A DNA stretch of 59,126 nucleotides, counting the filler, from Dugesia japonica (lineage: Eukaryota): assembly GCA_001938525.1 (NCBI GenBank). It is 5 parts of 5 records of this genome, joined end to end, with 100 filler letters (N's around TTAATTAATTAA, not from the genome) between each part and the next. Parts side by side here need not be neighbours in the genome. Positions count along the whole stretch, not along the records: positions 8,430 to 20,453 come from MQRL01565370.1; 4 more parts are not named here. One strand, given 5' to 3'. Numbering within the stretch: position 1 is the stretch's first letter; every line of letters begins with the position of its first letter. A program made the translations under genes and the position numbers. Positions 1 to 36,185 of the stretch are shown one piece after another. The notes below the pieces were generated by a model. The model was not told the DNA's origin. It saw nothing but the letters and a program-made list of their open reading frames with translations, and ran no database searches.

Positions 1-354
1 AGGAAACTGATCAGCAAAATCCAATGAGCATGCATCGTAAGAATAAATCCATCTTTCATTTAAAAATCTTCCAGGACGAAAATAGCTTTCGACTACAAAG
101 CTGCGTTGTGCTGTGGTAAGAACCATTCTTCAACGGGAAAATCAGTTAATTGTCTAAAATTTACTAATATTGACTATTTATTCGACTATATTTTAATAAA
201 TATCATTAAATGTAATCCATTAAACATAAATAAGTATGCACTTATTAAACTTGCTTAGTATTAAACATGATTTGTATTCACAAACTTAGAACTAGCAATT
301 GAAACATACAATGACATTAAAAATTTCGAGTCAACTTTTATACTGAACACCCTG
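1..354 (-). mobile_element. 5' end of a Tc1/mariner-superfamily transposon (rosa/DD41D-like), truncated by the window edge
   Basis: TIR CAGGGTGTTCAGTATAAAAG ends at 354 and is followed by TA. Minus-strand ATG at 126 reads MVLTTAQRSFVVESYFRPGRFLNERWIYSYDACSLDFADQFP, resembling the DUF4817-type HTH N-terminus of DD41D transposases. Confidence 0.7.
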
Positions 355-689
355 TACTATTTGTAAAAATTGATTATTTGATTTTAAATAAAAAAATAAA
401 TAAATCAAGTAGTGTTTAGAATTTATTACAAAGCAAAATATAAGCAAATATTTAAATAACGTAAAAAATTTAATGGAATTCAAGCAATCTGAGATTCGAC
501 ATATAAGTCATATGATAAATGTTTACTAAATCAGACTTTGATGTACACAAGACTTGACGCGTAAATTATTAATTCTATAATCAACAATAAAATAATAAAT
601 TAAAAGTTTTAGTGAAAGCCTGAACTGAAGATGATAATATCGATCTAATGTATCAAACAAGCACGATTTATTTTCATTGTACATACTCC

Positions 690-1060
690 GATTGCAATAC
701 TATTTCTACAACTGAGCACACCGTTGCATTAATATTGTCTTAATTAACAACCATAAATGAAGCAACCGGATATTCTCCATTTACCTTATGTATTTAAGAG
801 AAAACCATAATCCGATCGATGTCACTTTTAAACCCATCGTATCGCAGTATATGGATAATCCAGATTATTTAACAAAGATGCAAGAAAAATTACAAGAGTA
901 AAATTCAAACAAGAGCAATACAAAGATTACTATGATAGAAACGCTAAGGAACATAACTTTAAAGTTGGGGATGAAATTAGAATAAAAACGCCAGTTACAC
1001 AAAGAGAATTAACAAATAAAATGATGATCCCATGATTATAGCAGTGAACCTATGTAAAAT
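690..1060 (+). pseudogene. Gypsy integrase C-terminal remnant
   Basis: Broken frames read ..INEATGYSPFTL.. and ..KQEQYKDYYDRNAKEHNFKVGDEIRIK.., the TGYSPF and YYDR..FKVGD motifs of Ty3/Gypsy integrase. Confidence 0.7.
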
Positions 1061-1109
1061 AGGAGAATTAGAAATCGAGCCCTAAAAAGCAGCATAAATA
1101 CAATTAAAG

Positions 1110-1905
1110 ATCAGGTTCACAAAATAAATTATCCCTGTTGACAATAACATTAGTGATGCTAATCACATGGAGTTCCGGTCAAAAGAGAGAGAAAGAATTA
1201 TTCCTCTTGAATTATCCTTGACTTGAATAATTTATTCAGACAGAATTGTTCTCATCGCACCTGAGGATATAAAGAATATAACACAAATATATGCTAGTAT
1301 AACGGATAGACCAACTGCATTAATTAATCGGATATGTGTTTTCAACCATACCACATAAATATAGTCAAGGGATGGGCTAAGTGCAAACAAGAGGTTTAGA
1401 GGCCGATACAATATATCGCATCAGGATTCAATATATAATAATGAAATATAACGAAATTGATTCAACGGAACAGTATACCTTTACTACATTACCAAACAAG
1501 CAACCTCTAACACAACTACAAACATTCACTAAGGTCTATAATATTCCAACAAGACAGCAGACTTCGCAAACAGACAAACCTATCGAAAAAACAAATACAA
1601 TTAAACCAATAATATCTTATAGGATAAAAAACATAAACTCAGATTTAAATTAAAATAGCAAAAATTACGAATATTATAAAAATAAAATTTTGCAACTTTG
1701 GGGTACCACTAAAAATCCTGGATCTGAAAGTAAAATCATACGAAATATCCCTTTAATAATTTTAGGAACAAGCGTAATACTCTTCCTCGTAGCGTTTATA
1801 ATATCGGTATACTAAATTCAAAAACACTATAAGTGGAAGAGGCAGTGTAATCGGCGTCACCATACCCCACATATTCCAAATTACGTCCAATGGACAGAAC
1901 TCTGA
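1110..1905 (+). pseudogene. Degenerate type I membrane protein (signal peptide, FN3-like domain, Thr-rich stalk, TM helix) in the env position
   Basis: Signal-like LSLLTITLVMLITWSSG; FN3-like C-terminal strands GLEADTIYRIRIQY..QYTFTTLP (ORF 1381-1653); TM IPLIILGTSVILFLVAFIISVY followed by a basic tail; several stops and frameshifts. Confidence 0.55.
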
Positions 1906-2036
1906 ATACTTAATACAAAACTTATTTAAATTTTATAAAAAGAAAACAATGAAACTATAACACTAAAATCCACGTGTATATATGTGTATTTACATATAAA
2001 GATATCTATCTGTTTAATATTGTATTCATTGTAGAT

Positions 2037-3290
2037 ATGGACACAGTATCAGATAACCAGAAACTCTTCTTACATAACAATTGCAAAATTATTCTATATG
2101 AAAAAATATCGAATCCTAAAATACCCCTTAACAACATATGGGTGGGATAATGTAGCCAAAATCATTTATTATATCAACGAAGAACCATCTAGTCCAATAT
2201 GTCTTGAAAACCCCACACTTCCTAGAATTATCGCTTGCGGACACTATTTTTGTCTTTATTGCATTAACAAAACTCTACACCTGTCAAAACAATTTATCAC
2301 GCCTTGCCCCATCTGCCGTTCTTGCAAATTCTATCTATCCAGCACCAAGCGTGTGTGTTTCATCACACAAGAAGACCAGAAATCAGTCAAATATTTACAT
2401 TTCTACTTAACGTTAAAGTCCCATATTTCTAATTTACCCAAATTGCCCTCCATCTCCACCCTTTTCCATCAATACGATATCCCAGAATTTAGCGATATTA
2501 TCAGAAAATATAATGTCACTAGTCACCATATCATTCCAAAATATACATACCAACATCCGTAAAGTCAAAACCCTTAGTTACTCCAAGAAGGCCAGAGATG
2601 ATTTACTTATTCAGCTCAATTCAGAACTCGGAAAATTTAATAACCGCATCAAAATACAGGGCAGAGTCGAATTTATTACGGAATTCCATAGAAAGCAAAG
2701 TCAGAATTAAGAACAATTCAACATCATTCACCACCGGAATATTTTGCAATTGTTTTAACAAACAAGGAGACACCATAACTTATTCCTTAACGCCCAACAA
2801 CAGTTAGATTTACTTAATTTACTCATTATGGAATTAACCTACTTAATTACAGGCCGCATCACTTCACTTAGAACTAAAATCATGGAATATAGACATGGTA
2901 TCTTGTATCGTCAAAAGATCTTCAAAGCTGAAATAAATATTACTAATAGACTAATAATAAGCCAAATTTCTAAACAAGCCCCACGTTACAAATTTAAAAA
3001 GGTCATTAGGAAAGAGAAATCAGACCAACAATTCCTGCAGCAGATAGCAACTCACAGTAAATTGACTAAAGGACGACCCACCAGAATACTTATGCAGAAT
3101 CGGTCACCCTTACAAGTCTTCTCTTCACCAACTTCCCCATAAACTAATCTCCCTAACATAAAAGAAGAATTTAACCTATGCGTCTTCAAGGAACCATGCA
3201 ATAAAACTATGCCTTCTGGTCTACATGACATGAGTTGCCACTATTTCACTTTATTTTTGACACAAGATGCAGGACCATCTCTTTCTGAAT
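2037..3290 (+). pseudogene. RNF10-like: Intronless, frameshifted RNF10/Mag2-like C3HC4 RING E3 ligase gene
   Basis: KLFLHNNCK..WDNVAKI..PS(S)PICLENPTLPRIIACGHYFCLYCI..CPIC..KRV parallels the RNF10 FLQANCQF..W..VEQV..CPICL..CGH.FC..CI..CPIC..LKSV pattern. The first RING Cys is mutated to Ser. Downstream frames 2513-3142 continue weakly. Confidence 0.72.
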
Positions 3291-4130
3291 GAGAGACATT
3301 TGTTAAGGGAAGCCCGAAAATACTCACACAAAGGCATACATACAACATAAAACAATCACAAATCGTTAGAACAAACTTTTATTATTTCAAATGTACAAAT
3401 CGTATACCGAAGTTTTATAATTCAAGATTTTTATTTTATCGTTAAATCGAATTTTCATAATCTCTATTAATTATTGCGAATTTTATTATAAACAATCAAA
3501 TCCTTATTACTGAATCTTTATTGTAAACATCGGAATTATTGATTTATTTGCAAGGTAAATTTTAATAAAGATATATATCAATTTTATAAAATTTAATAAA
3601 TATTTATTTTTACGAACAGTAATTTTATAATTTGCATGATAAATCTTTATATAATTTTGTAAATATCCATGTACGATCTATGTATTCTATGTGTATGTCA
3701 TTAGTATAAATAGTGGTCTTAAAGTCANTATTTTTGCCCCTTTTTAAATTACTTGATAAGAGTTAAAATCTACTTGGGTTACAACTCAGAGTAATAAATT
3801 TTAAAAAACACCTATTAAGCTTGTATTTAATTTCGTTCAAATATAATTTAGAAAAGTAATAATCATTTTTTCAATAGCTGACTATAAAGTTTACTTAAAC
3901 TAATATTAATTATATATATTAACGATGGTAAGATATAAGGTCTACATATACAATAATATACAGAAAACCGTTGGGTTGAAATATAATTAAAAATCATTTC
4001 AAACTCACGCAATTGCTGATTTGCTTTGGCAACAATACCCAAAGCATCTCAACACAAATTGGGTCATAGAGAACCTTCTATATCTATTATAATATGGTAC
4101 TCTGATTTATTTTTCAAAAAATTAATTAAT

Positions 4131-4300
4131 TAATATAGTAGCGCACTGGGCCACTTAATCTCTCTCCCCCAGGATAAGTGATGTAACGAAACTTAATCCC
4201 TGGGTATTCTTTAGTTGGAAATTTACAAAGTTATGTCATATTAGGTAATATTACGAAATAGAAATTAAGTGGCACTATTACAACACACACTCACAATTCC
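4131..4300 (+). mobile_element. Partial Polinton-type terminus
   Basis: ATAGTAGCGCACTGG matches the reverse complement of the Polinton end at 37601-37624 and is followed by a C-rich tract. Confidence 0.45.
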
Positions 4301-4309
4301 TTCGTTCTC

Positions 4310-5000
4310 GTTAATGTCAATAAGTTATCTTGCAGCGATTTCGCATCAATTCGATGAGTATTGTGAGACCTATAATGCGTTCACTGTCCTTATCATTAAT
4401 TATTATTGTTATTATTATTGTTACTACTATTGATTTTATTATTGGGGAAACCACTATCATTATAAACATTATTATTATTAAAATCCTCATTTGCAACATT
4501 ATTAATGTTATGATTATTATTATCAACCTTGTCATTAATTATAGTGTTAATTTGAGAAGTGAGTTTTTTGACTAAAATTATTAAATAGGGCAATTAAGAT
4601 AGCCTCGAGAGTAGTAAAATTTACTACCCACATTACTACTTGGCAACTCTATTCAACTGCGGCAATATTGCGAAACTGGGTAGAAGAGTGGATAATTAAG
4701 AAGATAATTTGGAACAGCTCCTTCGTATGATGAGATAAAACATCCAAACGATACCGATTATGTGTTTCGCGGAGATGTTCCCTCTAGATACGCCAGCTGG
4801 CACGGAATAACATGAATTCATTTCATCTGACCATTTATTCATTAAATTTACTTAATTGAATCTTTTTGATTTATTATTTTTTAATATAACCTAACCCCTA
4901 GGAATATCGATGCTGTTCCTCCTGAGGAATTGCAGAGTAATTTTCAATGGGCGGGAAACCCTTTACACTCTGATAATGGCATCCTGGTAGATAGACAAGA
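4310..5000 (+). pseudogene. Diverged copy of the LTR-borne ORF cassette array (ATT-rich segment, cassette b, start of cassette c)
   Basis: EIKHPNDTDY/CFAEMFPLDTPAGTE* (about 4732-4810) vs EVEHPDETDLQCFVEMFPLEPRVDSDEE* (ORF 10324-10509). FQWAGNPLHSDNGILVD (about 4942-4992) vs FKRYYNPHDCNAGIMVD (ORF 10669-11121). Confidence 0.6.
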
Positions 5001-5002
5001 TA

Positions 5003-5600
5003 TAATTTGTCTGAAGATGACAGATATACTGTCAAAACTTGTTTTGCTAAATAAATATTTAATTAAATGGCATGTTAAATTATTTATAAATAGATTGCCA
5101 TTATTCTTTAACTTTTTGAATAATAAATATCCTGATGTTTTGCTGATTTTCAAGAAATACATGAAAGCTTTTCATACTTTAAGAAAGAAACGGATATTTT
5201 TTTAATCGAAACATGTATCGATGAAAATATAGTACCTAAGTTCATTTTTACGAAATCGATACACGATTGTTTAACCAAAGAAGATACAAGAAAGATCCAT
5301 GTGAAAATTTTAAGAAGGATGCTGGAGTGCGAAAAAATTATCTAGTAGAAATTAAACCTACGAGAAAACACAAAAAAAACGTATTTTCATCGCTCTATTC
5401 ACGAAATTTCCCATTCACAATTTTCTCTCATGACAACAATCATAGAAAAATTCCCCTGTATAAATCTTCTAAAGACAATTATGATAAGTAATAGAAATAT
5501 TAGCGATAATATCCCCATGCATGCAACCTTAGTAACACTAGTTAATTGCCTCTCGTATCAATGATTCATGGGCATTAGCTTAAATAAAAATCGGTAGTAA
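5003..5600 (+). mobile_element. Penelope-like element 5' fragment (pLTR plus ORF N-terminus)
   Basis: 5005-5095 matches the pLTR at 49330-49420 (reverse strand). It is followed by ..IETCIDENIVPKFIF, resembling the FL..C....vPKF N-terminal motif of PLE ORFs. Confidence 0.6.
5008..5047 (+). ncRNA. Minimal type I hammerhead ribozyme, mutated copy
   Basis: TGT CTGAAGA T GACAG-ATATA-CTGTC AAAA CTTG TT: perfect stem II, but GAAA is mutated to AAAA. Confidence 0.5.
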
Positions 5601-5959
5601 ATATCGACAATTTAAAACATGTTGTTACCTTTTATTCTAAGCAAATAAAATTTTCTTTCGTTGTTTTAATTATAATTTTTCCCAAATTATATTCGCCCAA
5701 TTCTTAACTCCATTCAGTTGATCAAGGTAATATCATTGTAGTCACTAGGATTTATTATTAATGTCATTGCATTTTTTCTTTATCCCGTTAATTGTTTACA
5801 TATTTGCTTGATTCTCTACTATATCAATGAAAGCCTCAATTGATCTTAAATTAATATTCACCAGAAGAAATTTAGTATTATTGTTATTATTATCTATTCC
5901 TTTAGTGTGATTATATTATTAATATTTTTGCCATAAATCATGATTATTAATATTTTTAT

Positions 5960-6716
5960 TGTTGGACTGAAACAGATCAAGGAAGAAAATAAAGATTAGT
6001 GAGTTAAAACGAAAAATAGATTGAATTGAATGAAACGATTAAAGGAGTAATATAAAACAAAGAATTAAACAACGTAATAATAAAGAATAATTGAGTAAAA
6101 TAAATGATAAAGCCCGAAATGATAAATAAAAAAAGAACTAAATAAATGACCAATAATTTAGAAAATAAATACAACGGTGGAATTAAGGAATGAGAGGTGC
6201 AATAATAAAAGAAACGAGAAGGAAAGTGCGAAGAAATCAGAAATAATACAGTGATTAAAACAAAGGGAACGAATTTAATAAAGTCAAGAAAAAAAATCAA
6301 AACGAAAATTCAGGAGTACCTTAAATAATGATTTAAAAATAAAGAAACGGAGATAAAAATAAGAAAATAATAACACTTATTTATATATTATCAATGTCAT
6401 AAAGTATGTTAGAGAGTTATACAATTATAAAATAATATATATCAAAGGATTATAGAATAGTATGAACGTTATTTAAAAATCAAAGTCAGGAAATATTATA
6501 ATAATTATGTTGGTAAAAGTATATCGCTTGTGTAGAATAATTATATAACAATTTAAGTTAAAGTTAAACCATGATTAAAACAAAAATTTATTGTATTAAG
6601 TAAATATAATGCTAAAAATGAACTTTTATAATTATTATATTCGAGTAATCCAAAAACTAGTATTATCGAATAAAAAAATCAGAAAACCAGATAAGATATT
6701 ATAAAAATTAGACAAG
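5960..6716 (+). mobile_element. 5' part of a Gypsy-type LTR
   Basis: Starts TGTTGGACTGAAACAG, similar to the family start TGTTGGGGTGAAACACC, followed by A-rich U3-like sequence. Confidence 0.45.
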
Positions 6717-7830
6717 TGTTGGGGTGAAACACCCGGTTTTAGAAGAAAAACAAAGCCAGGGGCCCAAATCGAAAAATAATGAAGGGAGTTGGAAAAGAAA
6801 ATTGATTAAGATTAATTAGATATGGTGGAAAAATTGCAATAATTACATCAATACGAAAACAGGCGAAAAGATAAAATGCAAAAAGAAAGCATCAAATGGA
6901 TAAAATACTGACCGAAATCAAGTTAATAATTAAAGAAAATTATAATTATTAATAAAAATTTAAAGAAACGATCGGTAAAATAATAACTAATCAACGAAGG
7001 AAAAATTAATTAATTTACCACAAAAAAGAAGTTAAATTGGGCGAAAATCGGTTTTTGGGGGATAATTTCGCTCTAGGAAATCCTAGAGAATACTAATAAG
7101 AAAAACTGAAAGGAGAAGGTAACTGGTCAATGGAATTTCTAAAGAAGAAAATTCTATCATCACCAGGAAGACCTCTAAAACGGTATGAAAAACGAGCCAA
7201 TAAGGGGCCAGAAAAGAAAAATAAAACAAAGAATAAAAAACCACATGGTGCTCTAAAAATAGCACCAATAGAGAATCGAAATTCTCAGAAAACCACGAAA
7301 ATTGGCACCAGCACCAATGAGAAAAAATAATCAAAAAAAGAAAACAGAAGGCCAATAACAATTGTTCCAAGTTGTAAAGGAAATGGTATAAAAACCCCCC
7401 CTGATTTTAGTCGAAAAACAATCAATTTTCTTGATATTTTAACGGCTGAAAAGCTACACGACTTAATCAATCTTATAAACTCGGAAAAAGTTTCATTACT
7501 AGTTGGTAAATCACTGTCAAAGTAATAACATTCTAAACCAATTTGAATTTACTAATCGAAATAGAAAAGAAATTATTCTACGTAGAATCTTAAAACGAAT
7601 TTGGACTATCAATTTGGAATAAAACAAGAAACGATAGGACTATGAAAAACTCGTTGCAGAAATTTCTCATTATTCTAAAATTAAATTTTTATTTGAACTA
7701 TGTTATTATGAATGTTTCGTATGATAAATATATAATAAATTAAACTTGATATTATTAAATCATTTTATTTAATCACATTATTAACTATAAAAGAGAAATT
7801 GATTAAATTTTTATTAAAGCACCAACTTAC
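6717..7830 (+). mobile_element. Gypsy-type LTR (right boundary uncertain)
   Basis: Starts TGTTGGGGTGAAACACC, identical to 41746. CCAAT cluster and TATAAAA at about 7387. Similar to 8430-9090. Confidence 0.6.
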
Positions 7831-8329
7831 AACGTCCGAGTTCAGCCATTCCAATTTTTACTTGATTAAATTCGTTTGCTTCGAGAAATACTCATGAATA
7901 GTGCATTATCATAGCTAGAGATTATCGATTGATATTTGTAAAGGAGTAAATTCCAATATTACAGAAAATCATTGAGGACGTAATTGATGAATAAATAAGG
8001 CAACCATAAAGTAACGTAAATTCCAGACTATGTCCTGGTAGACGAATCCGATACATACACAATGAATATTGTGTCACTTTTCTTTACCTGCATAGGTGTG
8101 TTATAGATAAATCCAGCAACTCAGTAAACTAATGACTATTTGTTTCATCATGCCAGTGAATTGACGAGCAAACTAGGTCTGAATTTCTACATAATGTTGT
8201 TGGTTGTGTAACCCAGTTCAGATTATCATGTGTGTAGAAATTGTGACTAAGTCAATTTCCGTAAGTTGAGTGATGACGACATTATTATCCGTTATATTTC
8301 AACGATCTATTCATGGTATCATTGGCATT

Positions 8330-8429
8330 NNNNNNNNNNNNNNNNNNNNNNNNNNNNNNNNNNNNNNNNNNNNTTAATTAATTAANNNNNNNNNNNNNNN
8401 NNNNNNNNNNNNNNNNNNNNNNNNNNNNN
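8330..8429. other. Artificial contig linker
   Basis: N44-TTAATTAATTAA-N44, with stops in all six frames; exactly the same linker at 20454, 35154 and 45732. Confidence 0.95.
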
Positions 8430-10073
8430 AATTTGCAGAAAATCGGTGCCAGCACCAATAAAATTAGAAAAGAACTGGTCCAAAAATACCAGCAAATCCG
8501 AACGTAGTAGGGGTGTCCAGAAAATCCTATAAAAGGACCTCCAATTTTCAAGTAAAAATATATTCAATAATTCATTTTACTAAGTAGTTAGAACTACGGA
8601 AAAAATTTGTTATCACTAAGTTGAAAACAATCAATCAATCGTTATTTTCATTTAAGTCACGACAATATACTCCAGTATCGTAATTAAAGTAGTGCGAATT
8701 AAACCAGGCTATCAGCTATATCAATTATCGCTAAATACTAATTGCTGTCGATTCACGAGAAACAAGTTATAGAAACTCTCGGTGCAAAAGGTAAAATACC
8801 AACCGAAATTTCAAATAATTATTATAGTTTAGAAGTCTATCAACCCAATCTCCAAATCAGTCTCAGGATCAGAATTGTCAATTTACCCGAACAACCCGTT
8901 GCAGAAATCTGACCAAATCTTAATAAGTAAACTATTAATTTCTAATTGTTGATCGTTGTAATCTATATATGTTATTAATATTTAATAAATTATTGTTGGA
9001 TAAAATCAATATGAATTTGCTAAATGTATTCCTCTATTTAATTAATTATATGATTATAAGGTTAACTAATTTACAATCGGGATATAAAATCCAACACTGG
9101 GGAAAATAATCGTAATTGTTTCTACTCTTAAGTCCCACTCTAAATAAATTTATCAGTATCAAATTGTCAATCCACTAGGATTAATCATTAAATAGTCACC
9201 CGTTTTATTACTAAAATTCAAAGTTTAAATTTTATAAAAATAACAACACCAAAGAAANNNNNNNNNNNNNNNNNNNNNNNNATATAGAACCAATATTCTC
9301 TTACTGTAGTAGGGGAAAGTTACTATTTTCATAACAAGCTTAACCCAAAAAAGATAATCCATAATTACTATGTCGATAAGAAATTCCAACTTCCTCGCGA
9401 GAATTACCAAGTATCCCAGAATCAATGCGTTTCTAGCAATTAATTATGTATTCCATTTATTAGTGGTCGTTGATAAATTAGAAATTCCTAAATAGCAGAA
9501 TATGTGAATCAAGCAGGATTATAGTTGATCTACCAGAAAACTCTATCCACACACCAACACAATAGAAAAATGCAAGTATAACACACCAGGTTAGTCAGTA
9601 TAACCAATACAGCTATATACATGTTGCTAAGTAACCCCGCGTCACAACGAATTTAAACCTAAANTTGGTGTTAATATATTAATTTTATCAATAAAATTAT
9701 TATTTATTATAAACAGTGAAAAGAGCGATAATCTCAAAGTTATGATTATTAAGGTGACAACGTCACTGTTATTTTGAAAATTATTCTTATGATTATTATT
9801 TTTTTTGGGTGCCCTGACTAATACGTTTAATTTCATCATTACTCGTACGATGATGTTTACCTTCAATAATCTTAGTATCGACGATATTAGCATAGCTACT
9901 GCTTCGTCCTGTTATCATTCATTTCATTATTATTAGCCGGGGTACCATTGTTACAATTGTTCGTAGTCGCATTAGTAGCCTTGTTTACTATTAACGATGA
10001 TCCTAAATTATTACTATCAATACCGTATTAATGTCCTTAGTATTATTAATGCCGGTATGATGACCCAGGCCCC

Positions 10074-10292
10074 ATGGATATTCCCGAAATAGCATTACTA
10101 TTCGTAATCGAACAAGGTCACATGATTAACTTTGGTTTACGAGTAATTCCGTTACCACTCGTAGATCGTCCTTTTACACATTCTGACCTTTCCAATCTTT
10201 GTTTATCCCCAGCTATTAAGTTAATCAATGTTATTCACCGCGTCCTCACCCAGGTCCCGGATGGGCTAAGAGAACTTAAAATCAAAATATAG
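10074..10292 (+). CDS. LTR cassette a, unknown small protein (possibly exon 1 of cassette b)
   Basis: ATG-initiated 72-aa ORF with raised GC. It is followed by a CACTAAC branch point, a T-tract and TAG at 10321-10323. Confidence 0.4.
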   Translation: MDIPEIALLFVIEQGHMINFGLRVIPLPLVDRPFTHSDLSNLCLSPAIKLINVIHRVLTQVPDGLRELKIKI

Positions 10293-10323
10293 ATTTCACT
10301 AACTCCCCATTTTTTGTTTTTAG

Positions 10324-10509
10324 TTGAGGATGGCAAAACTGCGACGCACTCTGAAATGGATCAAACAACAACGACAAGCAGCTATACTTAAACAATTAAT
10401 TGCCTATTACCTGACTAAGGGAGAGGTGGAGCATCCCGACGAGACGGACCTCCAATGTTTCGTCGAGATGTTTCCCCTTGAGCCTAGGGTGGACTCAGAT
10501 GAAGAATAA
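10324..10509 (+). CDS. LTR cassette b (QAAILKQL..HPDETD..CFVEMFPL), unknown function
   Basis: Canonical acceptor immediately upstream, AATAAA at about 10605-10616, homolog at about 4660-4810. Confidence 0.55.
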   Translation: MRMAKLRRTLKWIKQQRQAAILKQLIAYYLTKGEVEHPDETDLQCFVEMFPLEPRVDSDEE

Positions 10510-10685
10510 CTCCCCTCACTCGAATCAAGTTCCCAGACGCGCAAATTTAATCAAACCAATCATGATAATTATCCAGCGTTCGATTAATTGTGCTTACTGA
10601 TCATAAATAAAATAAATTGAATGTCCTTTAAGTGATTCGTTACTATTTACATAATATTTTCTTTTTGGTTGTTTTATTTTGTCAG

Positions 10686-11121
10686 GTTTAATCGACTGTT
10701 CATTATAAAATTTAAGATGGATTTTAAATGGGAAGCACTGTGGGATCAATATAACCAGCGAACTATTTTCAAGCGTTATTATAATCCCCATGACTGCAAT
10801 GCTGGTATCATGGTGGATTATTCGAACTTATCACTGGAGGAAGCAGAAAATGAAAGAGATTGGGCGACCGCAGAACGCCGGGCTTATTATGAATGGAATG
10901 GCCCCTATCGTAGTCGTGAAGTTCTACATCGAGTCACGACTGTCGATCCGGTAACAAGTCAGTCTACCACTCGTTGGCAAGAGGGACCCTCCTTACTTCC
11001 AGTTCCACTTGGCCATATGTCCCGAAGTACTACCTTCGTAGTCGACCTAGGGAACCAATTGTGGGAACTCCGGAACCAGGCGATTGGCGGCTCGGTCGAA
11101 AATACTGAACCCCCAACTTGA
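10686..11121 (+). CDS. LTR cassette c (MDFKWEALWDQY..NP..GIMVD), unknown function
   Basis: Acceptor TTTTATTTTGTCAG ends at 10685; ATG at 10717; long open GC-rich frame; partial homolog at about 4900-5000. Confidence 0.55.
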
Positions 11122-11329
11122 TTACTCACCCGATATTTATCGATTTAAATGTCTGTGTGTTCTAATAATACAATTTAGTTGTCCTTCATTAGTTGTTATT
11201 AACCCCATCGGTTATTTTTCGACAATCTCTCTAATGTAATCAAATAAGAAAATAATTATTTTTACGCTTAGTGTATAGAACTCTTTATCTTAATCTATAT
11301 CCTTTAGTGCATTCCTCCTTAAACCGTAG

Positions 11330-11646
11330 TTTGGCCCCTACAAAAAAGATACGGGCAGATAGCGAAGAGCGTGAAATGTCGTGGGACTTGTATTGGCTTG
11401 CCAAGCGTAATTGGGAGGCGGATACTGCCAACGCCAACAGCAAGGTAAGTCGATACAGAAAGAAATGTGTTGCCTTTCGGAAGGANNNNNNNNNNNNNNN
11501 NNNNNNNNNNNNNNNNNNNNNNNNNNNNNNNNNNNTATCAAGACCGAGAAAATAAACTGTTAGGCGATGTGCTCAAATTGAAAGCTGCGATGCCTTTAGA
11601 GCCCCTGATGGTGGACAAAGGTACCCAAACTCTCCAGAATCACTGA
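11330..11646 (+). CDS. LTR cassette d, helical protein ending in DKGTQT (spans a sequence gap)
   Basis: Acceptor-like CCGTAG ends at 11329. Open frame before the gap; after it YQDRENKLLGDVLKLKAAMPLEPLMVDKGTQTLQNH*. AATAAA at 11661. Confidence 0.45.
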
Positions 11647-11764
11647 TAAAAATCTTTATTAATAAAAGTTTTATGTCTCCACCGGACTCTTGAATTTCTT
11701 TGTGATATTATCAATAAATCTTTCCACTACAGAATTTTACTAAATTGACAATAATTTAACTTNA

Positions 11765-12148
11765 GTGCCGCGAATACAGTTTCCAAACAGTTTGCGCCGT
11801 TGCCATCGCATTATGCGTCGCCTCCTTCTAGAACGTCACTTGAAACGTAAGGTTGACCAGGCTATACTGAAACAATTGGCACAGCGGGATCTGTTAATAA
11901 AAAAATTGGATAACATTATCAAAAAACAAAGTGATTTGGCCGCCCAGAACAAGGCGTTAGAAACTGAAACGAAGCAGTTACTGAAACGGAAGATCGACTT
12001 CCTGAAGCAGTATATAGCCGATCTATCGTGTCAGCTGGGTAATCCAAACACAACCCAGTGGAACAACGACGACGATATTGCAACTTTTAACTTTATCGTC
12101 ACCTCCCCTGATCAATGGTTAGATCCAGGCGCACTAGATCTGATTTAA
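11765..12148 (+). CDS. LTR cassette e, coiled-coil protein (QAILKQL motif)
   Basis: Acceptor-like AACTTNAG at 11758-11765; 127 open codons with a heptad pattern; AATAAA at about 12162. Confidence 0.55.
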   Translation: MPRIQFPNSLRRCHRIMRRLLLERHLKRKVDQAILKQLAQRDLLIKKLDNIIKKQSDLAAQNKALETETKQLLKRKIDFLKQYIADLSCQLGNPNTTQWNNDDDIATFNFIVTSPDQWLDPGALDLI

Positions 12149-12394
12149 ATATGTTATTGATAATAAATGTTTAATTGTAAGAAATTGTTTTAACTCTCTT
12201 AAATAATAATAGGAAAAACATAGAACCCGAACAAAAGGTTTATTGGCGTGCACCTTCCATCAAGGGTAAGGTCAACCACAATAAACTGAAAACCTACCAC
12301 AGGGACGGTAGGATTAAATTCTTGAAAGGGTTCCCCCGAGGACTGCTTTTCCCCAGTCACTTTCCTCAACTCAGGTAGAACCCCAACAATATAA

Positions 12395-13650
12395 CAAAAC
12401 GTACTTCATAACATGTTTCGATTATACACTATGTTATTTACACTAATAGTGTTCTGTTGGCATTGATTTGAATTTCATTTTTGAATACTCCATAAATCTC
12501 ACATATGTTGATGCAGTCAAAGCCTTTGCAAACTTTATATGTAATCTCAAATTTACTTGATGGAGTAATTGACTCTGATTTATATCGAAATCTGGAGCAA
12601 GCACAAATGTAATATATGGGTATTTGGTTTTGAATTCCTCAAGAGTTATTCCAAAATTCATTTCTCATCTAAATATTCCATATCTCGTACAATAGATTGC
12701 ATATAAAGTTGTGCTATGATTATCTTTTTCAAAATCTTGAGTATATGTCTTTCGATAATCACTTTTTTTCGCTAAGAACAAAGAAGTAACATTTAAATAT
12801 TGAAATGTTGAACTAGAGTTTTTATAATCACCATTATATTGACTATTATATTGAAATGTTATCAACATAAAGTTAGGCAAACTACGATTTTCAAAGATTT
12901 CTTCCTTATAAAACGATGCACTATTTTTAATAATTGCAAATCCAACAAGCTCCTTCATTTGTAATGGATAAATAACATTTTGTTAACTTAATCCTATTTG
13001 ATGACCAGCTAATACTCAAGGTTCAACACACACATGTCTAGAAATTAATTTTGCATCCAGTAACTAATATTTGAGTTCATATATTGCTAATTCCAGTCAC
13101 TTTCTAGGGTTTGCTCTCTTCACTCTAATGTGTACATTAACACCAGGAATAAAATATTTTGGTTGATCCATACAATCCAATTACAAGGAACCAAATAGAG
13201 CCAATGGTTTCCATAATCTAATCGACCCTTTCCTATCTGGTTCTGTTCCATATCCAATTGCTTTTAGACAAATATTCTTACTGTCGCCATTATATTTTAA
13301 TATAGTTTTAATCAATGCTTTCTGAATATAAGTTCCATTTCCACATTTTATTTCAAAATTGTTAAATTACAGAATAACAGAATGAAACGTATAGTTGCTA
13401 GGTATTACATCAAAAGCTTCAACTAAATCCTTTCCAACTTTATCAACTACTTTCACTTGTATATAAAACAAAGTATCATTCAAATTTAGATATTCAGTTT
13501 ACAAGCCGTTTATAAAATACTCTACATAATTTCGTGGTTCAGATATTGAATTCATTGGAAATACCGCTTCAAATGCCCCATATTCAATAACAGGTTGAGG
13601 AGATGGTCGATCAAAAATACGCAATTCTGTTTTACAACAAATCATATACA
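12395..13650 (-). pseudogene. Polinton/adintovirus major capsid protein (double jelly-roll), frameshifted
   Basis: CKTELRIFDRPSPQPVIEYG..VEYFING..YLNLNDTLFYIQVKVV..NYTFHS; RSLPNFMLITF..FQYLNVTSL; ITLEEFKTKY..FVLAPD..LRLHIKFAKAL. These motifs are typical of Polinton MCP. Confidence 0.85.
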
Positions 13651-16049: not shown

Positions 16050-17110
16050 TTATCTTCCAAGCACATTGGATTTTAAAGCTCAACAATGTAATTACTATAC
16101 AGTCAATTATTAGAAATGAATGCATATTCAATTTTTTAAAGACAGTGGAGGAAATCGCTAATAATATAGTGTACCCGTATCATCAATCAAACGGAAAAAA
16201 GAAACTTATAATGACACAACAAGAAGTATCAATCGCTACCTCTACAAATTGTCATTGGTNTCGAAAATCATTAGTAAAACCAGTTTGTGACCATGATCAT
16301 TTCACTGGAAAATACATTGGTGCAGATTGTAATAAATGTAACTTAAGTAGAAGAATAAATGAGCAGTTGCTTGTAGTATTCCATAATCCAAGAGGATATG
16401 ATTTACATCATATTTTGAAATATGAATTGAACAAATTTTAAAATTGGAGCATCTCATGCATACCAACAACATCAGAAAAATTTAAGCCTTAAAGAAGAAA
16501 CAACCACAATGCCATCAAGGTGGGAAAAAGTAAATGAGCCAGACTATCGAATAACCGGCTGTAATAATCCTTTTGGTATATGATGATATAACTGAAGCTG
16601 CATGTTTATCTATTGGCGGAATTATTTTAATAGTTTTGGTCAAAGTCATTGGCACACAATAAATTGGAATCAGGCATCAGCATTGATGTCATTAAATGAC
16701 CCAATTGAACTGTTGACTGATAATGACATATATTACTTTTTTGAAGAAGGTATAAGAGGAGGGCTGAAATTCGTCAACAAACGCTATGTCAATTGTAATG
16801 AAAATACCGATTTACTATACATCAACAATCTATATGGTTGGGGTTTGAGCAAAAAGTTGCAATATAAAGATTTCGAGTGGGTCCATTCAGGGTTAAAAAA
16901 TATTTTTAACCCTGAATGTAGAACATCAGACCTTGACTCGTTATCATATGATTACTCATTAGTAATGATTATACCAATAGAGATACAAGATGGACTGAAT
17001 GATTTCTCACTAGCAGCAGAACATCAATCTGCTAAAGGAAGTAATGTTACAAAATTGATGTTAACACATTATCCAAAGAACAATTACATCATACATTAGA
17101 GGTTGCTACA
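16050..17110 (+). pseudogene. Protein-primed family B DNA polymerase (Polinton type), internally deleted
   Basis: VCDHDHFTGKYIGADCNKCNL..VVFHNPRGYDLH; IELLTD..FFEEGIRGG..INNLYGWGLSKKL. Confidence 0.88.
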
Positions 17111-17709
17111 AATGATGATCTTTTAAAATATGATCTCATATGTGTAAATGTATTTTCATCACAGAAAATAGTAAAACTCGGTATAAAAATTTATAATATC
17201 AAGGATATGTGGATAATATAAATTTCACATTTGCATAATTTAATCGATTAATTTTGCAGCATGTCTGTAATTTGAATAAGTATAACAAAGTATTTCCTTG
17301 TTTTGTAATTAGCATTTTTTCAAAGGTTGAATTTAATTGGTTCAATTGTGTTAAATATAAATTTGTATATAATACATTAAATTTCTTATTTTAATAGGTT
17401 TAATATTTTAAATGATGATTGAAATAAAAAAATGAAGATTAAAATGAAGAAAGAAGATATACAAACAGATCTAAATTATTATAATAAACAGCTATATCTA
17501 CATTTTGCTTGCGAATGCAACAAGTTTAGATATATGATCCTTAAGAATTTATTCATTAAATTTTATAATTAAAATTGTCTTTTTATTTTATTATTTGTTT
17601 AACATTAAGGTTTTTCTTAATATTAAGATTTTATTTAGTTAATATTTTAGTTAATTTTTATTTGCTATATAATTTTTGAAAAAAAAGAAAACTAATAAAT
17701 TAACAAATA

Positions 17710-20553: not shown

Positions 20554-22273
20554 TACAGAGTGCGCTGGTATTAGGTTATCCAATTTAGTAGCCAATTCTC
20601 TTCGTTGAATATCTGTTAACTCTGGTTAGAGAACAAATGATTCCTTCAACTTTTCGCTCCGTATGCTATTAGTTATAAACAATGTAGCTGTTTCATATAA
20701 TGACTTTTTACTTGAAAATATTTCATTGACAAGCTTTCTAACTCTAATTTTAAAATTTCTATATTTGTCATTTGGTTTCTGCATTACTTTTGACAAGATT
20801 GAAACTTTATCGACCAATTTTTCTTGAATAATTAATGATTCTTCACAAATGTCATTAGATAATTTCTGAACTTCTTTTGTTTTTTCCAACCACAATTCCT
20901 TAGCATCGTATCGCATTAGAATATCAAAGGCAAACGATAATTCCATCTGATTGAAAGGTACAAATTCCTTTGTTGTTTGAAGCTACTTTTTAGCTGTATC
21001 TGATGATCCATCAAAGAATCTCGGCTTTGCAATTTGTAACCCCTGAGTTGAAGACGGTAATTTTGAAATAAAATTTGTCTTTCATCTTTTTTTGCCATTG
21101 TGTTCACTGTTACGTGATCGCCAGTTAGAACACAAGATTCTTCCATAATTTTTATTTATTAAAATACGAATAATAATTACAAAACTGATAATATTTACAC
21201 AATGTTTATATATCAATTTATAACTGATATATAACTATATTTATGCTTCATATACGCGGCTACCTTTTTTGCTCCAGCATGACACAAAAGATGGTGTATC
21301 TTCATTATACCTTCTTCTACTTTATCATCAAGTATTCATGTTCCTTCATCATTTTCATCAAAATTGCTTTGTTTCATTTGAATATCTANNNNNNNNNNNN
21401 NNNNNNNNNNNNNNNNNNNNNNNNNNNNNNNNNNNNNNTACAGAGTGCGCTGGTATTAGGTTATCCAATTTAGTAGCCAATTCTCTTCGTTGAATATCTG
21501 TTAACTCTGGTTAGAGAACAAATGATTCCTTCAACTTTTCGCTCCGTATGCTATTAGTTATAAACAATGTAGCTGTTTCATATAATGACTTTTTACTTGA
21601 AAATATTTCATTGACAAGCTTTCTAACTCTAATTTTAAAATTTCTATATTTGTCATTTGGTTTCTGCATTACTTTTGACAAGATTGAAACTTTATCGACC
21701 AATTTTTCTTGAATAATTAATGATTCTTCACAAATGTCATTAGATAATTTCTGAACTTCTTTTGTTTTTTCCAACCACAATTCCTTAGCATCGTATCGCA
21801 TTAGAATATCAAAGGCAAACGATAATTCCATCTGATTGAAAGGTACAAATTCCTTTGTTGTTTGAAGCTACTTTTTAGCTGTATCTGATGATCCATCAAA
21901 GAATCTCGGCTTTGCAATTTGTAACCCCTGAGTCTAAGACGGTAATTTCGAAATAAAATTTGTCTTGCATCTTTTTTTGCCATTGTGTTCACTGCTACGT
22001 GATCGCCAGTTAGAACACAAGATTCTTCCATAATTTTTATTTATTAAAATACGATTAATAATTACAAAACTGATAATATTTACACAATGTTTATGTATCA
22101 ATTTATAACTGATATATAACTATATTTATGCTTCATATACGCGGTTATCTTTTTTGCTCCAGCATGACACAAAAGATGGTGTATCTTCATTATACCTTAT
22201 TCTACTTTATCATCAAGTATTCATGTTCCTTCATCATTTTCATCAAAATTGCTTTGTTTCATTTGAATATCTA
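20554..22273. repeat. Near-identical 835-bp direct duplication (20554-21388 and 21439-22273)
   Basis: Offset 885, separated by a 50-N gap, about 1% substitutions. Probably haplotype or assembly redundancy. Confidence 0.85.
21440..22031 (-). pseudogene. Frameshifted ORF, possibly gag-like from a second retroelement (duplicated at 20554-21146)
   Basis: Overlapping frames 22031-21801 and 21831-21511, helical composition, adjacent to Gypsy pol. No diagnostic motif. Confidence 0.35.
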
Positions 22274-31533: not shown

Positions 31534-33015
31534 TTAATCATCTTTTGGTAATATTTCTGATGTCAAAACCAATGCATCAGTTGTTTGGTTCAAATCTGAA
31601 GTCGGAGTAGATTCATTTGTTATTTGTATGATATATTTTTTTGAATTGTTAGACTGTTTTTCTTTAAATGAAGATTGTAATTCAGAAATCATTTTGATAT
31701 TTGTAAATTCTAACAAATTCGTTTCACTTTTACTGTGAGTTTTTCGCATTTTTGATAGAAGACTAATTGCTTTATTTCTCCATTCATTAATCTTATTTGA
31801 AGAGAATTGATTTGATTTTGTCTTTATTGATAAGGAACTTTTATTGGCGTTTGATACGTTAAATGTATTATTTAGATTGTCTTTTGAAGTGAACATATCT
31901 GTGACTGCTGTTTCACTAGCTTGTGGGCCGACTTTCACTTTACTTTTTCTCGAATTGAGATTTCGAATTTGACTAATATCGGATTGCCGACGAGACAATC
32001 GAAGATTGTCAGATGGATTTGCTGTTATTGTCTGACTAGAGCTTTGCGCATTTTTATGTTCGGCATAAAGGGCAAACGCTTCACGATCAACGAATAATGG
32101 ATCAACTTTAATTAAAGTGCCTACCAAACGATCATTTTCTTCTTCAATTAAATCCATAACAAGACGAGTGTTATGAATTTCTTCTAATAAATCATCTTTC
32201 ATTTGATTCATTTGACGAATTTTATCATAAAATTTAACTTCAAGTAGTCTTTGTAAATCTATTTGATCCTGAAGAAACGTAACTGAATCTAATAATCTTC
32301 CTAGAATTCTTTGTAATCGTGTATAAATATCTCTAAGTCTGTCACATATTTGACCGGATTTTTTTATTAATTCAAATTCTGGTCTTTCTGTCCAAAAGAA
32401 AAGTCGATCAACAAGACTGATACTATCTGTCATTAATGGCATACAATAGCAAGATATCTGTGTTAGTGCTAAAGTAAAATGGAGTTGTAAATAAAATAGA
32501 TCTTTGTAAAATTCCAATAATGGTCGAAGATTTTCTTTTAATTCAGCTTGAGCAGAATCAATTCTATGAGCAATATTTTCTAATACTGAAATAAAAGTTG
32601 AATCTTTTGCATTGTGAGTAATATCATTTAAATTTTTAAAGCATGACTTAAACAAATTACTTCGACAACTTTTAACTCGCCGATTCGAAGTTTCTGCAAT
32701 AAACTTTTCTCCGTGATTTCTTAATTCATTAATTAAAGCATCATTATGTCGTTCTCTGATATGCATCATTTCTTTTTGGGAATTTAAATCATTTTCCAAT
32801 TGTTCAATTTCCAATTCTCCGCTTTTGATCTGTTCAATAATAAACTCTTTAGTGATTATTCTATTTTGTTGATCCCATAAATTCCTTAAAGTTTCTAAAT
32901 GCTTAAAACAAAGTAGAAATTCGTCTTTGACTTGTAAAATTATTCGCAGTTCTCCTTGTATTGATGAAGGATAGATTGGTAACAAGTCTTTGCTACTCTC
33001 TATGGTACTAAACAT
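31534..33015 (-). CDS. Hypothetical 493-aa coiled-coil protein, single exon, probable host gene
   Basis: The only long uninterrupted ATG-to-stop ORF. Helical/heptad N-terminal 320 aa and a Ser/Asn/Lys-rich tail; no TE motifs recognised. Confidence 0.75.
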   Translation of the reverse strand: MFSTIESSKDLLPIYPSSIQGELRIILQVKDEFLLCFKHLETLRNLWDQQNRIITKEFIIEQIKSGELEIEQLENDLNSQKEMMHIRERHNDALINELRNHGEKFIAETSNRRVKSCRSNLFKSCFKNLNDITHNAKDSTFISVLENIAHRIDSAQAELKENLRPLLEFYKDLFYLQLHFTLALTQISCYCMPLMTDSISLVDRLFFWTERPEFELIKKSGQICDRLRDIYTRLQRILGRLLDSVTFLQDQIDLQRLLEVKFYDKIRQMNQMKDDLLEEIHNTRLVMDLIEEENDRLVGTLIKVDPLFVDREAFALYAEHKNAQSSSQTITANPSDNLRLSRRQSDISQIRNLNSRKSKVKVGPQASETAVTDMFTSKDNLNNTFNVSNANKSSLSIKTKSNQFSSNKINEWRNKAISLLSKMRKTHSKSETNLLEFTNIKMISELQSSFKEKQSNNSKKYIIQITNESTPTSDLNQTTDALVLTSEILPKDD

Positions 33016-33686: not shown

Positions 33687-35052
33687 TGTTGTGGCGAAAC
33701 ACCTTGAATGGAAAGTAAAAATAGCGGTAGGTAAAGCCGAAAATGAAAAGATAAGTCACGAAATGGGGAAACAAAGAACCCAGACAAAGGAAAGTCACAA
33801 TTCAGTGAAGGAAAGGAATAATTAAAAGAAAAACCCAGGTTGGTAGTTAAAACCAACATAATAACCAGCAAAATCTAANGTTACAGCAAGAAATAACCCA
33901 GAAATAATTAAGCCAAAAGGAAGAAAAGAAGAAATAGAAGCTATCAGCCAGATAAAGAGAATCATGAATAACAATTAGTTCATTGGGCAAAACTGAGAAA
34001 ATCATATTGAACTAATAATTGGTGAAAGTAAATAAATTTAAAATAATTAATTAAATTAATTAACGAAAGAAGAAATGATGAACTTAAATTAATTTCAGAA
34101 AAACAAAGAAATGAACATATAATTAAATTTTATGAAGAAAATAAAATAATTTATTTATTTAAATAAAATAAATCATATGAATTAAAATGATTTATTTCGA
34201 AGCAGAAAATAAATATTTTTTCAAAAATAAGAAAAATGAAGGTTTCCGCTTGAGTTAAAATTGACAGATAAGAAAATTCTGGTCAAGAAAAAATCGGAGA
34301 TTTCGAAAATCTAAGGTAAAAAGTCGTAGCAAGACTATGAAAGAAGATATAAGGGTTTGAGGATTGACCAATGTTTTTGTAATCTAAAAATATCAACTAA
34401 TAAAAAGAAATCATGTGACGATCAAGTCAAAAGGAACATTAGAAAATTCGTATGATGTCAAATAACCAATGAAAGAAACGAGGGTGTGAAGAGAACCGGT
34501 ATAAATACNNNNNNNNNNNNNNNNNNNNNNNNNNNNNNNNNNNNNNAAAATCCTGAAGTTAGACGAAATATTTTTCAATTATCACAGAAGGTGATTATTT
34601 TTTACTATTTTATTACCGTTGCAACGATTTCCCACTTAATGAGTTACAGAAGTTATGGAACCCAAAATAATTGAAGTCATTATGCAGATGTGGATCCGAA
34701 GTTAATGGTTTAGTGGTATACAATTGGTGGTCACGATAAGTCCAATAATAATTAACAAAATAATATAACTTTCCATAACCGGATTTTCTTTTATTTAATA
34801 TGGTTATATTTTATTTATATTCTTTTGTCAAACCGACACCATTAACCAATAAAGATTGAGTAGTTCTAAAAATTTAGCGAGTATTACGAAATTGAACAAA
34901 AACCGAAGGTATGCGAGTCTGTACTCGGATTCCGAGTCAACGGCTCCATTGCAAAGAACTGAATTTTTTGGGCCGCCAGATTAAATTCTTCGAGGGGTTT
35001 TATTAGGCCGACTACCCTAGACTTGTCAACTCACCAAGATAAAACCCCAACA
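33687..35052 (+). mobile_element. Gypsy-type solo LTR with GTAG target-site duplication
   Basis: gtag|TGTTGTGGCGAAACACC...TAAAACCCCAACA|gtag; CCAAT boxes and TATAAA at about 34500; homologous to 41746-43326. Confidence 0.88.
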
Positions 35053-35741: not shown

Positions 35742-36185
35742 ATGTTGGTTAATATTAATTACAAAGGTAAAGTATGGCAAGATGTAACAAGCAAAATGAA
35801 GTTTTCTATTGGTAAACCTTTTCAATTTGTTGACAAAAGTGGGAAATATATGTTAATATTCTTTAAATCAGGAAATTGTTGAATAATGAGATGTAAAAAA
35901 CCATTTTAAATGGAGAAATTACAATATAATATTAAGGATATTCGTTTGCAATCATTAACAATTGTAATCAATTTGGGAAAAGTTTTCAATTTTTATAAAT
36001 TAACACACGTGACAAAATGTTGGTTTGAACCAGAATTGTTCCCTGCAATGCGTCTTACAAAGTATGATCCTATATGTGTTCACGTATTTTCATCTGAAAA
36101 AATTGTAATACTTGGTATAAAAAATTTACACTATCAGAAATATGTGGATAATATAATTTCTGATTTGTATAATTTAATTGAATAA
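35742..36185 (+). pseudogene. Minimal TATA-binding-protein-like gene (about 147 codons, two in-frame stops)
   Basis: Repeat 1 NINYKG..LIFFKSGNC*IM; repeat 2 QSLTIVINLG..WFEPELFPAMRL..VHVFSSEKIVILG (TBP: YEPELFPGL..IF.SGK.V.TG). Confidence 0.8.

Follow-up and report, generated by a model that had tools for sequence, protein, structure and literature searches.

Complex retroviruses (with sag of mouse mammary tumor virus, nef of human immunodeficiency virus and bel of foamy viruses) and the 3'-coterminal units of adenovirus combine one promoter with many acceptors, small accessory proteins and common poly(A) sites, and a long terminal repeat (LTR) of such a retrovirus carries a single gene, which is located in U3 and thus upstream of its promoter. 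Among planarian retrotransposons, the giant Gypsy elements named Burro or GYPSM1 have an internal region of up to 25 kb and a total length of more than 30 kb, so that their LTRs must be long; their extra sequences lie in the polyprotein or in an upstream accessory open reading frame (ORF) with BIR, MATH, BCL2 and ankyrin domains, and the available part of the source describes no ORFs inside the LTR (PMC6431247). Here we analyze positions 8430 to 12388 of a 59,126-nucleotide stretch of Dugesia japonica DNA (the window), a segment which resembles Burro in its accessory ORFs and its AT-rich animal genome, as far as the same partial text describes them. The segment is likely the right-hand 4 kb or so of a Gypsy-type LTR in which an array of accessory genes follows the promoter. 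Our preferred explanation, which is tentative and to which we give a probability of roughly 45%, is that five frames, set between promoter and terminal block in an unusually long Gypsy-type LTR, are expressed from one promoter by alternative cis-splicing.

Five frames between a promoter and a terminal block

The first-pass annotation of this DNA had described five same-strand, GC-elevated ORFs separated by AT-rich spacers, and this description holds: the five frames (a to e) are all on the plus strand, with a guanine-plus-cytosine (GC) content of 0.42 to 0.49 against 0.21 to 0.31 in the spacers, in a window that has about 28% GC and also contains mariner and LTR remains. The features of the array are the following (aa, amino acids).

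8430-12388, plus strand: segment under study, with the promoter at the left, the terminal block at the right and five small frames between
8430-8560, plus strand: LTR promoter of the segment, with CCAAT at 8455, a G-rich block at 8510-8516 and TATAAAA at 8528; sequence upstream lost at the scaffold start
8457-9295, plus strand: non-coding body of the LTR, matching the LTR at 6717 in collinear order; candidate donor-like site at 8791, inner CCAACA at 9091-9096
9258-9281, no strand: assembly gap 1, a run of N within the segment
9669-10292, plus strand: cassette a, low-complexity hydrophobic frames 9891-10031 and 10050-10292 (first ATG 10074, 72 aa), in the same reading frame but interrupted by stops
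10297-10611, plus strand: cassette b, branch-like CACTAAC 10297-10303, AG 10323, ORF 10330-10509 (59 aa, basic start, acidic end), AATAAA 10606
10665-11121, plus strand: cassette c, AG 10685, ORF 10717-11121 (134 aa), conserved domain at residues 1-66
11307-11666, plus strand: cassette d, AG 11329 (stronger AG 11307), ATG 11376, gap 11486-11535, second part (d2) to 11646, AATAAA 11661; donor-like site at 11445
11486-11535, no strand: assembly gap 2, 50 N, inside ORF d
11745-12167, plus strand: cassette e, weak AG 11765, ORF 11813-12148 (111 aa, coiled-coil character), AATAAA 12162
12180-12388, plus strand: LTR terminal block, finishing CCCCAACA, with partial poly(A) RNA reads of related families
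4095-4951, plus strand: second a-b-c array fragment on another scaffold, strongly diverged, same order and strand

Base use in a, b, c, d2 and e is of the coding type, GC at the first codon position exceeding that at the second. Between 10250 and 12200, four plus-strand ATG frames of at least 55 aa total 363 aa, against 63 to 66 aa in local dinucleotide shuffles (n = 2000, with d taken only to the first stop past the gap), of which 0 to 1 reached the observed value.

Copies of the array were found both in sequencing contigs and elsewhere in the window. Run X1 is labeled "RNA?", but its contigs extend over spacers and unspliced acceptors, which makes DNA the likely source. From this run, 784 contigs fall on the segment, in 28 of its 30 bins and at 88 to 99% (81 at 99% or above, 207 at 95 to 99%, 381 at 90 to 95% and 115 below 90%). 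Contig depth is 1334 at the promoter bin (8430-8570), 7711 at the terminal block (bin 12237-12377) and 50 to 290 across most of b to e; it is unbroken from 10122 to 12388 and is 0 to 16 across much of the non-coding part and a. Contig 3 spans cassette b at about 96%, while contigs 4 and 5 span the acceptor of c, contig 4 (depth 63.6) being short by 9 letters net inside c, in frame. The second array fragment matches a (at 4095-4522) and the b-c spacer together with the start of c, in that order (0 of 300 shuffles for each), with a short b-like match between the two; its identity to the array is about 60 to 70%, and its c-like acceptor at 4901 has the same phase as that of c. A short dispersed repeat, present at 5002-5097, 41422-41503 and 49330-49424 (73 to 87% identity), cuts this fragment off at about 5002.

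For c, a single homolog (P0001, from a 512-bp ENA contig) was found with HMMER among 1.84 billion proteins (E = 1.3e-13); 34 of 66 residues are identical (52%) in an ungapped alignment beginning at the same first methionine. Of the 32 codons that differ, 14 need at least two changes, where about 6 would be expected if there were no constraint (P = 0.0014). With conservation as the basis for c, and ORF statistics plus contig copies for a, b, d and e, the frames look like real genes of the repeat family. The array itself is real, repeated and coding-like, and it lies in an LTR-bounded unit.

The ORF products had been described as being of no known kind, in agreement with our family and fold searches, which gave no match in Pfam, PDB, Atlas or fold collections. 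Pfam returned nothing at cut-off for a to e or for P0001, and nothing for the Burro-type domains BIR, MATH, BCL2, ankyrin and env-like in a to e, the array alone having been searched and Burro compared by description only. The best PDB matches by sequence had E values of 0.37 (c), 0.57 (e) and 2.3 (the c/P0001 alignment), Atlas gave no usable match for c, a shared-word homolog search gave nothing for c (6 candidates), e (22 candidates) or a RING ORF at 2098 described below (2 candidates), and none of six window proteins had an exact match in the protein collection. AlphaFold models had a predicted local distance difference test score of 38.7 for c alone and 59.4 for its residues 1 to 66 modeled from two sequences, the latter with one helix and three strands. 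Searches of fold collections had no match at E = 0.001 (best Z, 3.9), and we claim no fold. A WW-like or AP2-like look of c was unsupported, and e gave weak coiled-coil matches. At the nucleotide level, Rfam had no match at positions 1 to 13000, no tandem arrays beyond two 2-copy units occur in the segment, and queries with c alone, the two-sequence alignment and the terminal-block pattern found no related loci among contigs of viruses, prokaryotes or JGI metagenomes. Frames b and e share a six-residue motif (10373-10397 and 11855-11877, 16 of 17 bases; DNA score reached by 7 of 300 shuffles), which may be a hint of cassette duplication.

Probable placement of the array within the LTR

The window contains other LTRs with which the segment can be compared (TSD, target-site duplication).

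33687-35052, plus strand: comparison solo LTR, 4-bp TSD GTAG, 552 bp from TATA to end, AATAAA 205 bp before the end
41746-43326, plus strand: comparison solo LTR, 4-bp TSD ATAT, 627 bp from TATA to end
44464-45504, minus strand: third comparison LTR, end at 44464, no TSD
6717-8329, plus strand: nearest LTR relative in the window, running for 1613 bp before the scaffold stops some 940 bp beyond its TATA, no CCAACA end

The comparison LTRs begin with TGTTG and finish with CCCCAACA, and their TATA lies 552 to 645 bp before the end; as for a poly(A) signal near the end, one of the three has the AATAAA listed above and another has ATTAAA at 281 bp. The first-pass annotation had spoken of solo LTRs of 1.4 to 1.6 kb in this window; of the three compared here, only the first two have a TSD. 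The LTR-type CCAAT/TATA promoter announced at about 8455-8534 was found in the segment, where this interval aligns with the promoter block of the window's LTRs, with z scores of 4.2 and 4.9 against two of four LTRs and of 1.2 and 1.6 (not significant) against the other two. The long distance from TATA to end was likewise borne out, being 3860 bp in the segment against 552, 627 and 645 bp in the comparison LTRs.

At the right-hand side, 12388 ranks first among 36 CCAACA/TGTTGG sites by likeness to the three LTR ends (score 118.5; runner-up, 100). The three ends score 151 to 233 among themselves, and the segment, at well below these values, thus represents a distant subfamily. The 3' terminus said to be common to the segment and the window's LTRs therefore stands in that 12388 is the best site and carries the block, but its score makes it only a distant relative. 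The AATAAA at 12162, 227 bp before the end, is likely the LTR's own poly(A) signal. A different high-copy repeat (contig depth 1159, with partial RNA reads) lies in the right flank at 12567-12612.

The first-pass annotation had named an LTR end at 9095 as the case that would place the frames outside the LTR. The CCAACA in question, whose last base is in fact 9096, scores 84 and ranks fifth of 36, and its alignment shows no conserved terminal block, unlike that of 12388. Moreover, 8457-9295 is collinear with 7225-8053, in the LTR that begins at 6717, with a score attained by none of 300 shuffles, and that LTR aligns through the position matching 9096 without any CCAACA there. Judged by such alignments, the CCAACA at 9091-9096 is evidently not an LTR end. 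Two LTR starts, at 5960 and 6717, lie 757 bp apart and likely belong to nested LTRs, neither of which ends within the scaffold.

No LTR start motif (with up to 4 mismatches) and no purine tract followed by TG occur within 8430-12400, and no primer-binding-site-like TGG follows 12388, where the flank is unrelated DNA. With no LTR start, purine tract or later promoter inside, ORF e adjoins an LTR end whose sole promoter is the one at 8528. A short separate 3' LTR after e was ruled out, there being no purine tract or start motif, and a Ginger-type DNA transposon was ruled out by inverted ends of only 8 bp and by the central promoter in the relatives. The probable placement of the array inside the LTR, which we infer, thus agrees with three observations (9096 is no LTR end, the LTR at 6717 passes the same point, and no inner start exists).

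The window consists of small scaffolds strung together by N44-TTAATTAATTAA-N44 linkers, one of which occupies 8330-8429, and the first base of the segment is the first base of its scaffold. Because the segment opens at this join, its 5' end and its TSD are cut off. The gap at 9258-9281 is bridged by one X1 contig, which runs from the left side into letters matching the right side (a match made by eye), and the join across it is likely real.

Proposed processing of the transcript and competing explanations

All of the processing sites claimed for the cassettes are present, namely, AG at 10323, 10685, 11329 and 11765, the CTAAC of cassette b at 10299, and AATAAA at 10606, 11661 and 12162. The acceptors of b and c rank near the top of 180 AGs. 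An acceptor lies within 62 nt for three of four ORFs (P = 0.039) and AATAAA no more than 22 nt from the stop for two of four (P = 0.016), both thresholds having been picked after looking; together, acceptors and AATAAA exceed chance modestly. The distance from AG to ATG is 6 to 47 nt, and the acceptor phases are 0, 1, 1 and 2. Neither AATAAA nor ATTAAA, the two hexamers looked for, follows a or c before the next acceptor, and the claim that each gene is separately polyadenylated consequently fails as it was worded. With no poly(A) hexamer of their own in a and c, the frames fall into three groups with common 3' ends (a plus b, c plus d, and e), which favors alternative cis-splicing into these three ends over an operon resolved by a spliced leader (SL).

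We propose that the single LTR promoter would make a precursor from which a short leader is cis-spliced onto alternative acceptors, and that the messages would end at one of three poly(A) sites, a and b at 10606, c and d at 11661, and e at 12162. If the last signal is the LTR's own, the array would sit in an R region of about 3.6 kb, would be copied as such into both LTRs and would be retained in solo LTRs. Early strand transfer within R, known for retroviruses, would make such an R length workable. The products would be small accessory proteins, with c a compact domain and d and e coiled coils, acting on the processing of the element's RNA or on host cells. A wider version, possible but doubtful, is that a Gypsy lineage turned R into a 3.6-kb multi-gene unit with one promoter, a common leader, five cassettes and three poly(A) sites, that its solo LTRs are self-contained clusters, and that cassettes duplicate and reshuffle between subfamilies.

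Several observations weigh against expression of the five frames from one LTR promoter. To our knowledge, a 3.6-kb R region is far beyond the R sizes of retroelements, and only one of the three comparison LTRs has AATAAA about 200 bp from its end. The left end, the TSD and the parent gag-pol element are outside the sequence examined, and the presence of the array in both LTRs is a prediction. Taken by itself, the stretch past 9096 shows no significant likeness to the LTR at 6717 (98 of 300 shuffles). Strong AG sites show no strand bias (9 of 180 on the plus strand against 8 of 185 on the minus strand), and the acceptors of d and e are weak and outside the top 14. Where c and P0001 differ, residues are not replaced more conservatively than under neutrality (z = 0.2 to 0.4), and the differences do not cluster (P = 0.2). 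Finally, 40 differences between copies were listed among 191, the 29 from 10211 on being classed; the 11 listed in b to e comprise 3 synonymous and 8 non-synonymous changes (near neutral), and the 5 listed in a comprise 2 and 3, respectively. At these sites all covering contigs differ from the window, so that the changes reflect decay of the segment's own copy and not a family free of constraint.

The RNA data, which were parts of three raw runs (1592, 1888 and 1749 million letters), add to these points. They gave 3, 79 and 13 reads per run on the segment, 94 of 95 aligning only partly; most belong to related families and sit on the terminal block or on a repeat outside the element, with few on b and d. 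No splice junctions and no piles of read starts or ends were seen in the three runs (95 reads, no positive control). The subfamily of the segment is not detectably expressed in these three samples, and the segment's copy is likely a decayed, silent insertion. Planarian LTR elements are silenced by PIWI and under-counted in poly(A) libraries, according to the portions of PMC8532177 and PMC6884822 available.

The alternative that survives best, unlikely as we consider it, is that the segment is a composite: the array with its terminal block and the promoter part, which reaches from 8430 to about 9300, would derive from different or rearranged elements, through nested insertion, internal deletion or the scaffolding together of two copies, the cassettes being real but internal cargo. 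Contig depth is 0.3 to 12 at 8571-9134 and 0 at 9840-10121, compared with the high values on b to e, which suggests that the promoter part and the array may not travel together in most copies; by the method's own warning, however, such dips prove nothing, and depth is unbroken from 10122 to 12388. None of the X1 contigs listed spans the unit, the longest piece among them being 363 letters, and none crosses 9096 with 31 letters on each side. Two N gaps lie inside the segment, although the first is bridged. Around the copy at 4095-4951 no LTR of this family is clearly recognizable, nor does that copy match 9096-9720 significantly, and one X1 contig joins 12163 to 9671, which is perhaps a reordered copy or an AT-rich artifact but would mean that other orders may exist. 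The extra ORFs of Gypsy elements usually lie downstream of pol in what the available parts of PMC6431247 and PMC5408684 report. Against a composite, e directly abuts the terminal block, and neither a purine tract nor an LTR start nor a second promoter comes between them, so that an internal position would need two deletions, and the LTR at 6717 likewise has no end at a short distance.

A further reading, which we consider improbable, leaves the array inside the LTR but has its precursor cut into single-gene messages by SL trans-splicing at each acceptor. Trans-splicing is reported in flatworms by the partial sources at hand, and the short AT-rich spacers with an AG 6 to 47 nt before each ATG would suit it. 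Each upstream gene would, however, need its own 3' end signal, which neither a nor c has in the form of AATAAA or ATTAAA, and with the phases given above only b would be in frame with an AUG supplied by the leader, a feature of flatworm SLs. At almost no RNA coverage, no SL-type loose ends were listed. Least probable of all is that the LTR took up old coding fragments that are passively copied, with acceptors and poly(A) signals arising by chance in AT-rich spacers: the unseen subfamily RNA, the neutral-like differences in b to e, the want of Pfam, PDB or fold matches and the one homolog in so large a protein collection would fit, but the frame that stays open and ungapped against a 52% homolog, the excess of multi-change codons, the in-frame indel in a deep contig and the conservation of cassette order and of acceptor phase in a copy of about 60 to 70% identity argue otherwise.

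Other elements of the window and relation to known systems

Apart from the array and its LTR family, the window holds several coding remains. At 700-3790 lies the decayed 3' end of another Gypsy-like element. One of its frames closes at 1815 with a hydrophobic stretch; next come a purine tract, with TGTAA after it at 1846, and then CCAAT, a TATA-like site and an acceptor-like AG at about 2034. We take the element's motifs to be integrase-like, although it has no Pfam or PDB match. A C3HC4 RING ORF at 2035-2562 (Pfam, E = 1.7e-05), presumably RNF10-like, is followed by more broken frames up to 3445, and the whole may represent another type of gene-containing LTR, TTACA at 3779 being its candidate end. 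A TBP-like ORF at 35910-36185 (Pfam TBP, E = 1.7e-05) lies in a repeat present twice (78%), the other copy being at 17119-17322; the frame at 16602-17099 beside that copy has, in our assumption, the look of a family-B polymerase, with no Pfam match, and the TBP-carrying repeat is possibly a Polinton-like element. On the minus strand, 31534-33015 is a single-frame ORF of 493 aa with DUF5743 (E = 5e-64), likely a host gene; our literature search did not find the term DUF5743. An 835-bp direct duplicate (20554-21388 and 21439-22273, 98.8%) across a 50-N gap at a scaffold start is likely an assembly artifact.

If the five frames are indeed expressed from inside the LTR, LTRs, usually seen as pure control DNA, would be gene clusters left in many copies when full elements recombine out, the host would gain dispersed, promoter-equipped sets of novel small proteins, and the genes would outlive the loss of the remaining element. 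The size range known for R would grow more than tenfold. It would also become possible to examine how a retrotransposon of an invertebrate divides its output between full-length RNA and many spliced messages, a balance that complex retroviruses leave to regulators such as Rev or Rex. The array would further offer candidate products for the LTR families that are highly expressed on loss of PIWI silencing in planarians, as described in the accessible part of PMC8532177. Should the segment be a composite instead, it would still hold a new set of accessory genes, in an ordinary layout.

The accessory ORFs of complex retroviruses are found within U3 or in the interval from env to U3. The five frames of the segment, by contrast, all come after the TATA at 8528, no further promoter block follows, and there is no sequence likeness. 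In the PIWI-silenced GLT2 of Schmidtea mediterranea, the probe shows an AT-rich spacer, an acceptor-like AG and a GC-richer coiled-coil frame, as d and e do, in a comparison made by eye over 400 of 485 probe letters on the forward-primer strand, and the available text gives no structure for GLT2 (PMC8532177); the array family may already be in a repeat library under a name such as this. Plant Ogre elements, in what could be consulted of PMC6431247, resemble the segment in having LTRs of 1.9 to 6.5 kb and extra ORFs of unknown function, but have one or two of these and carry them in the internal region. The Vesta and Juno elements of bdelloid rotifers also add extra ORFs to Gypsy-like elements, typically from spliced messages, but there it is one captured enzyme gene, in the internal ORF3 position and with known homologs, as far as the excerpt of PMC5408684 goes. 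An ORF array inside an invertebrate LTR is not described in the partial texts that our literature search reached (including PMC11410931, PMC10954484, PMC5730564 and PMC13309565), and planarian repeat reports may do so. Long LTRs are therefore already known from Burro and Ogre, and extra ORFs, described as internal or as part of the polyprotein, from these two and the bdelloid elements; the part that is likely new is the array of five frames in its probable position inside an LTR.

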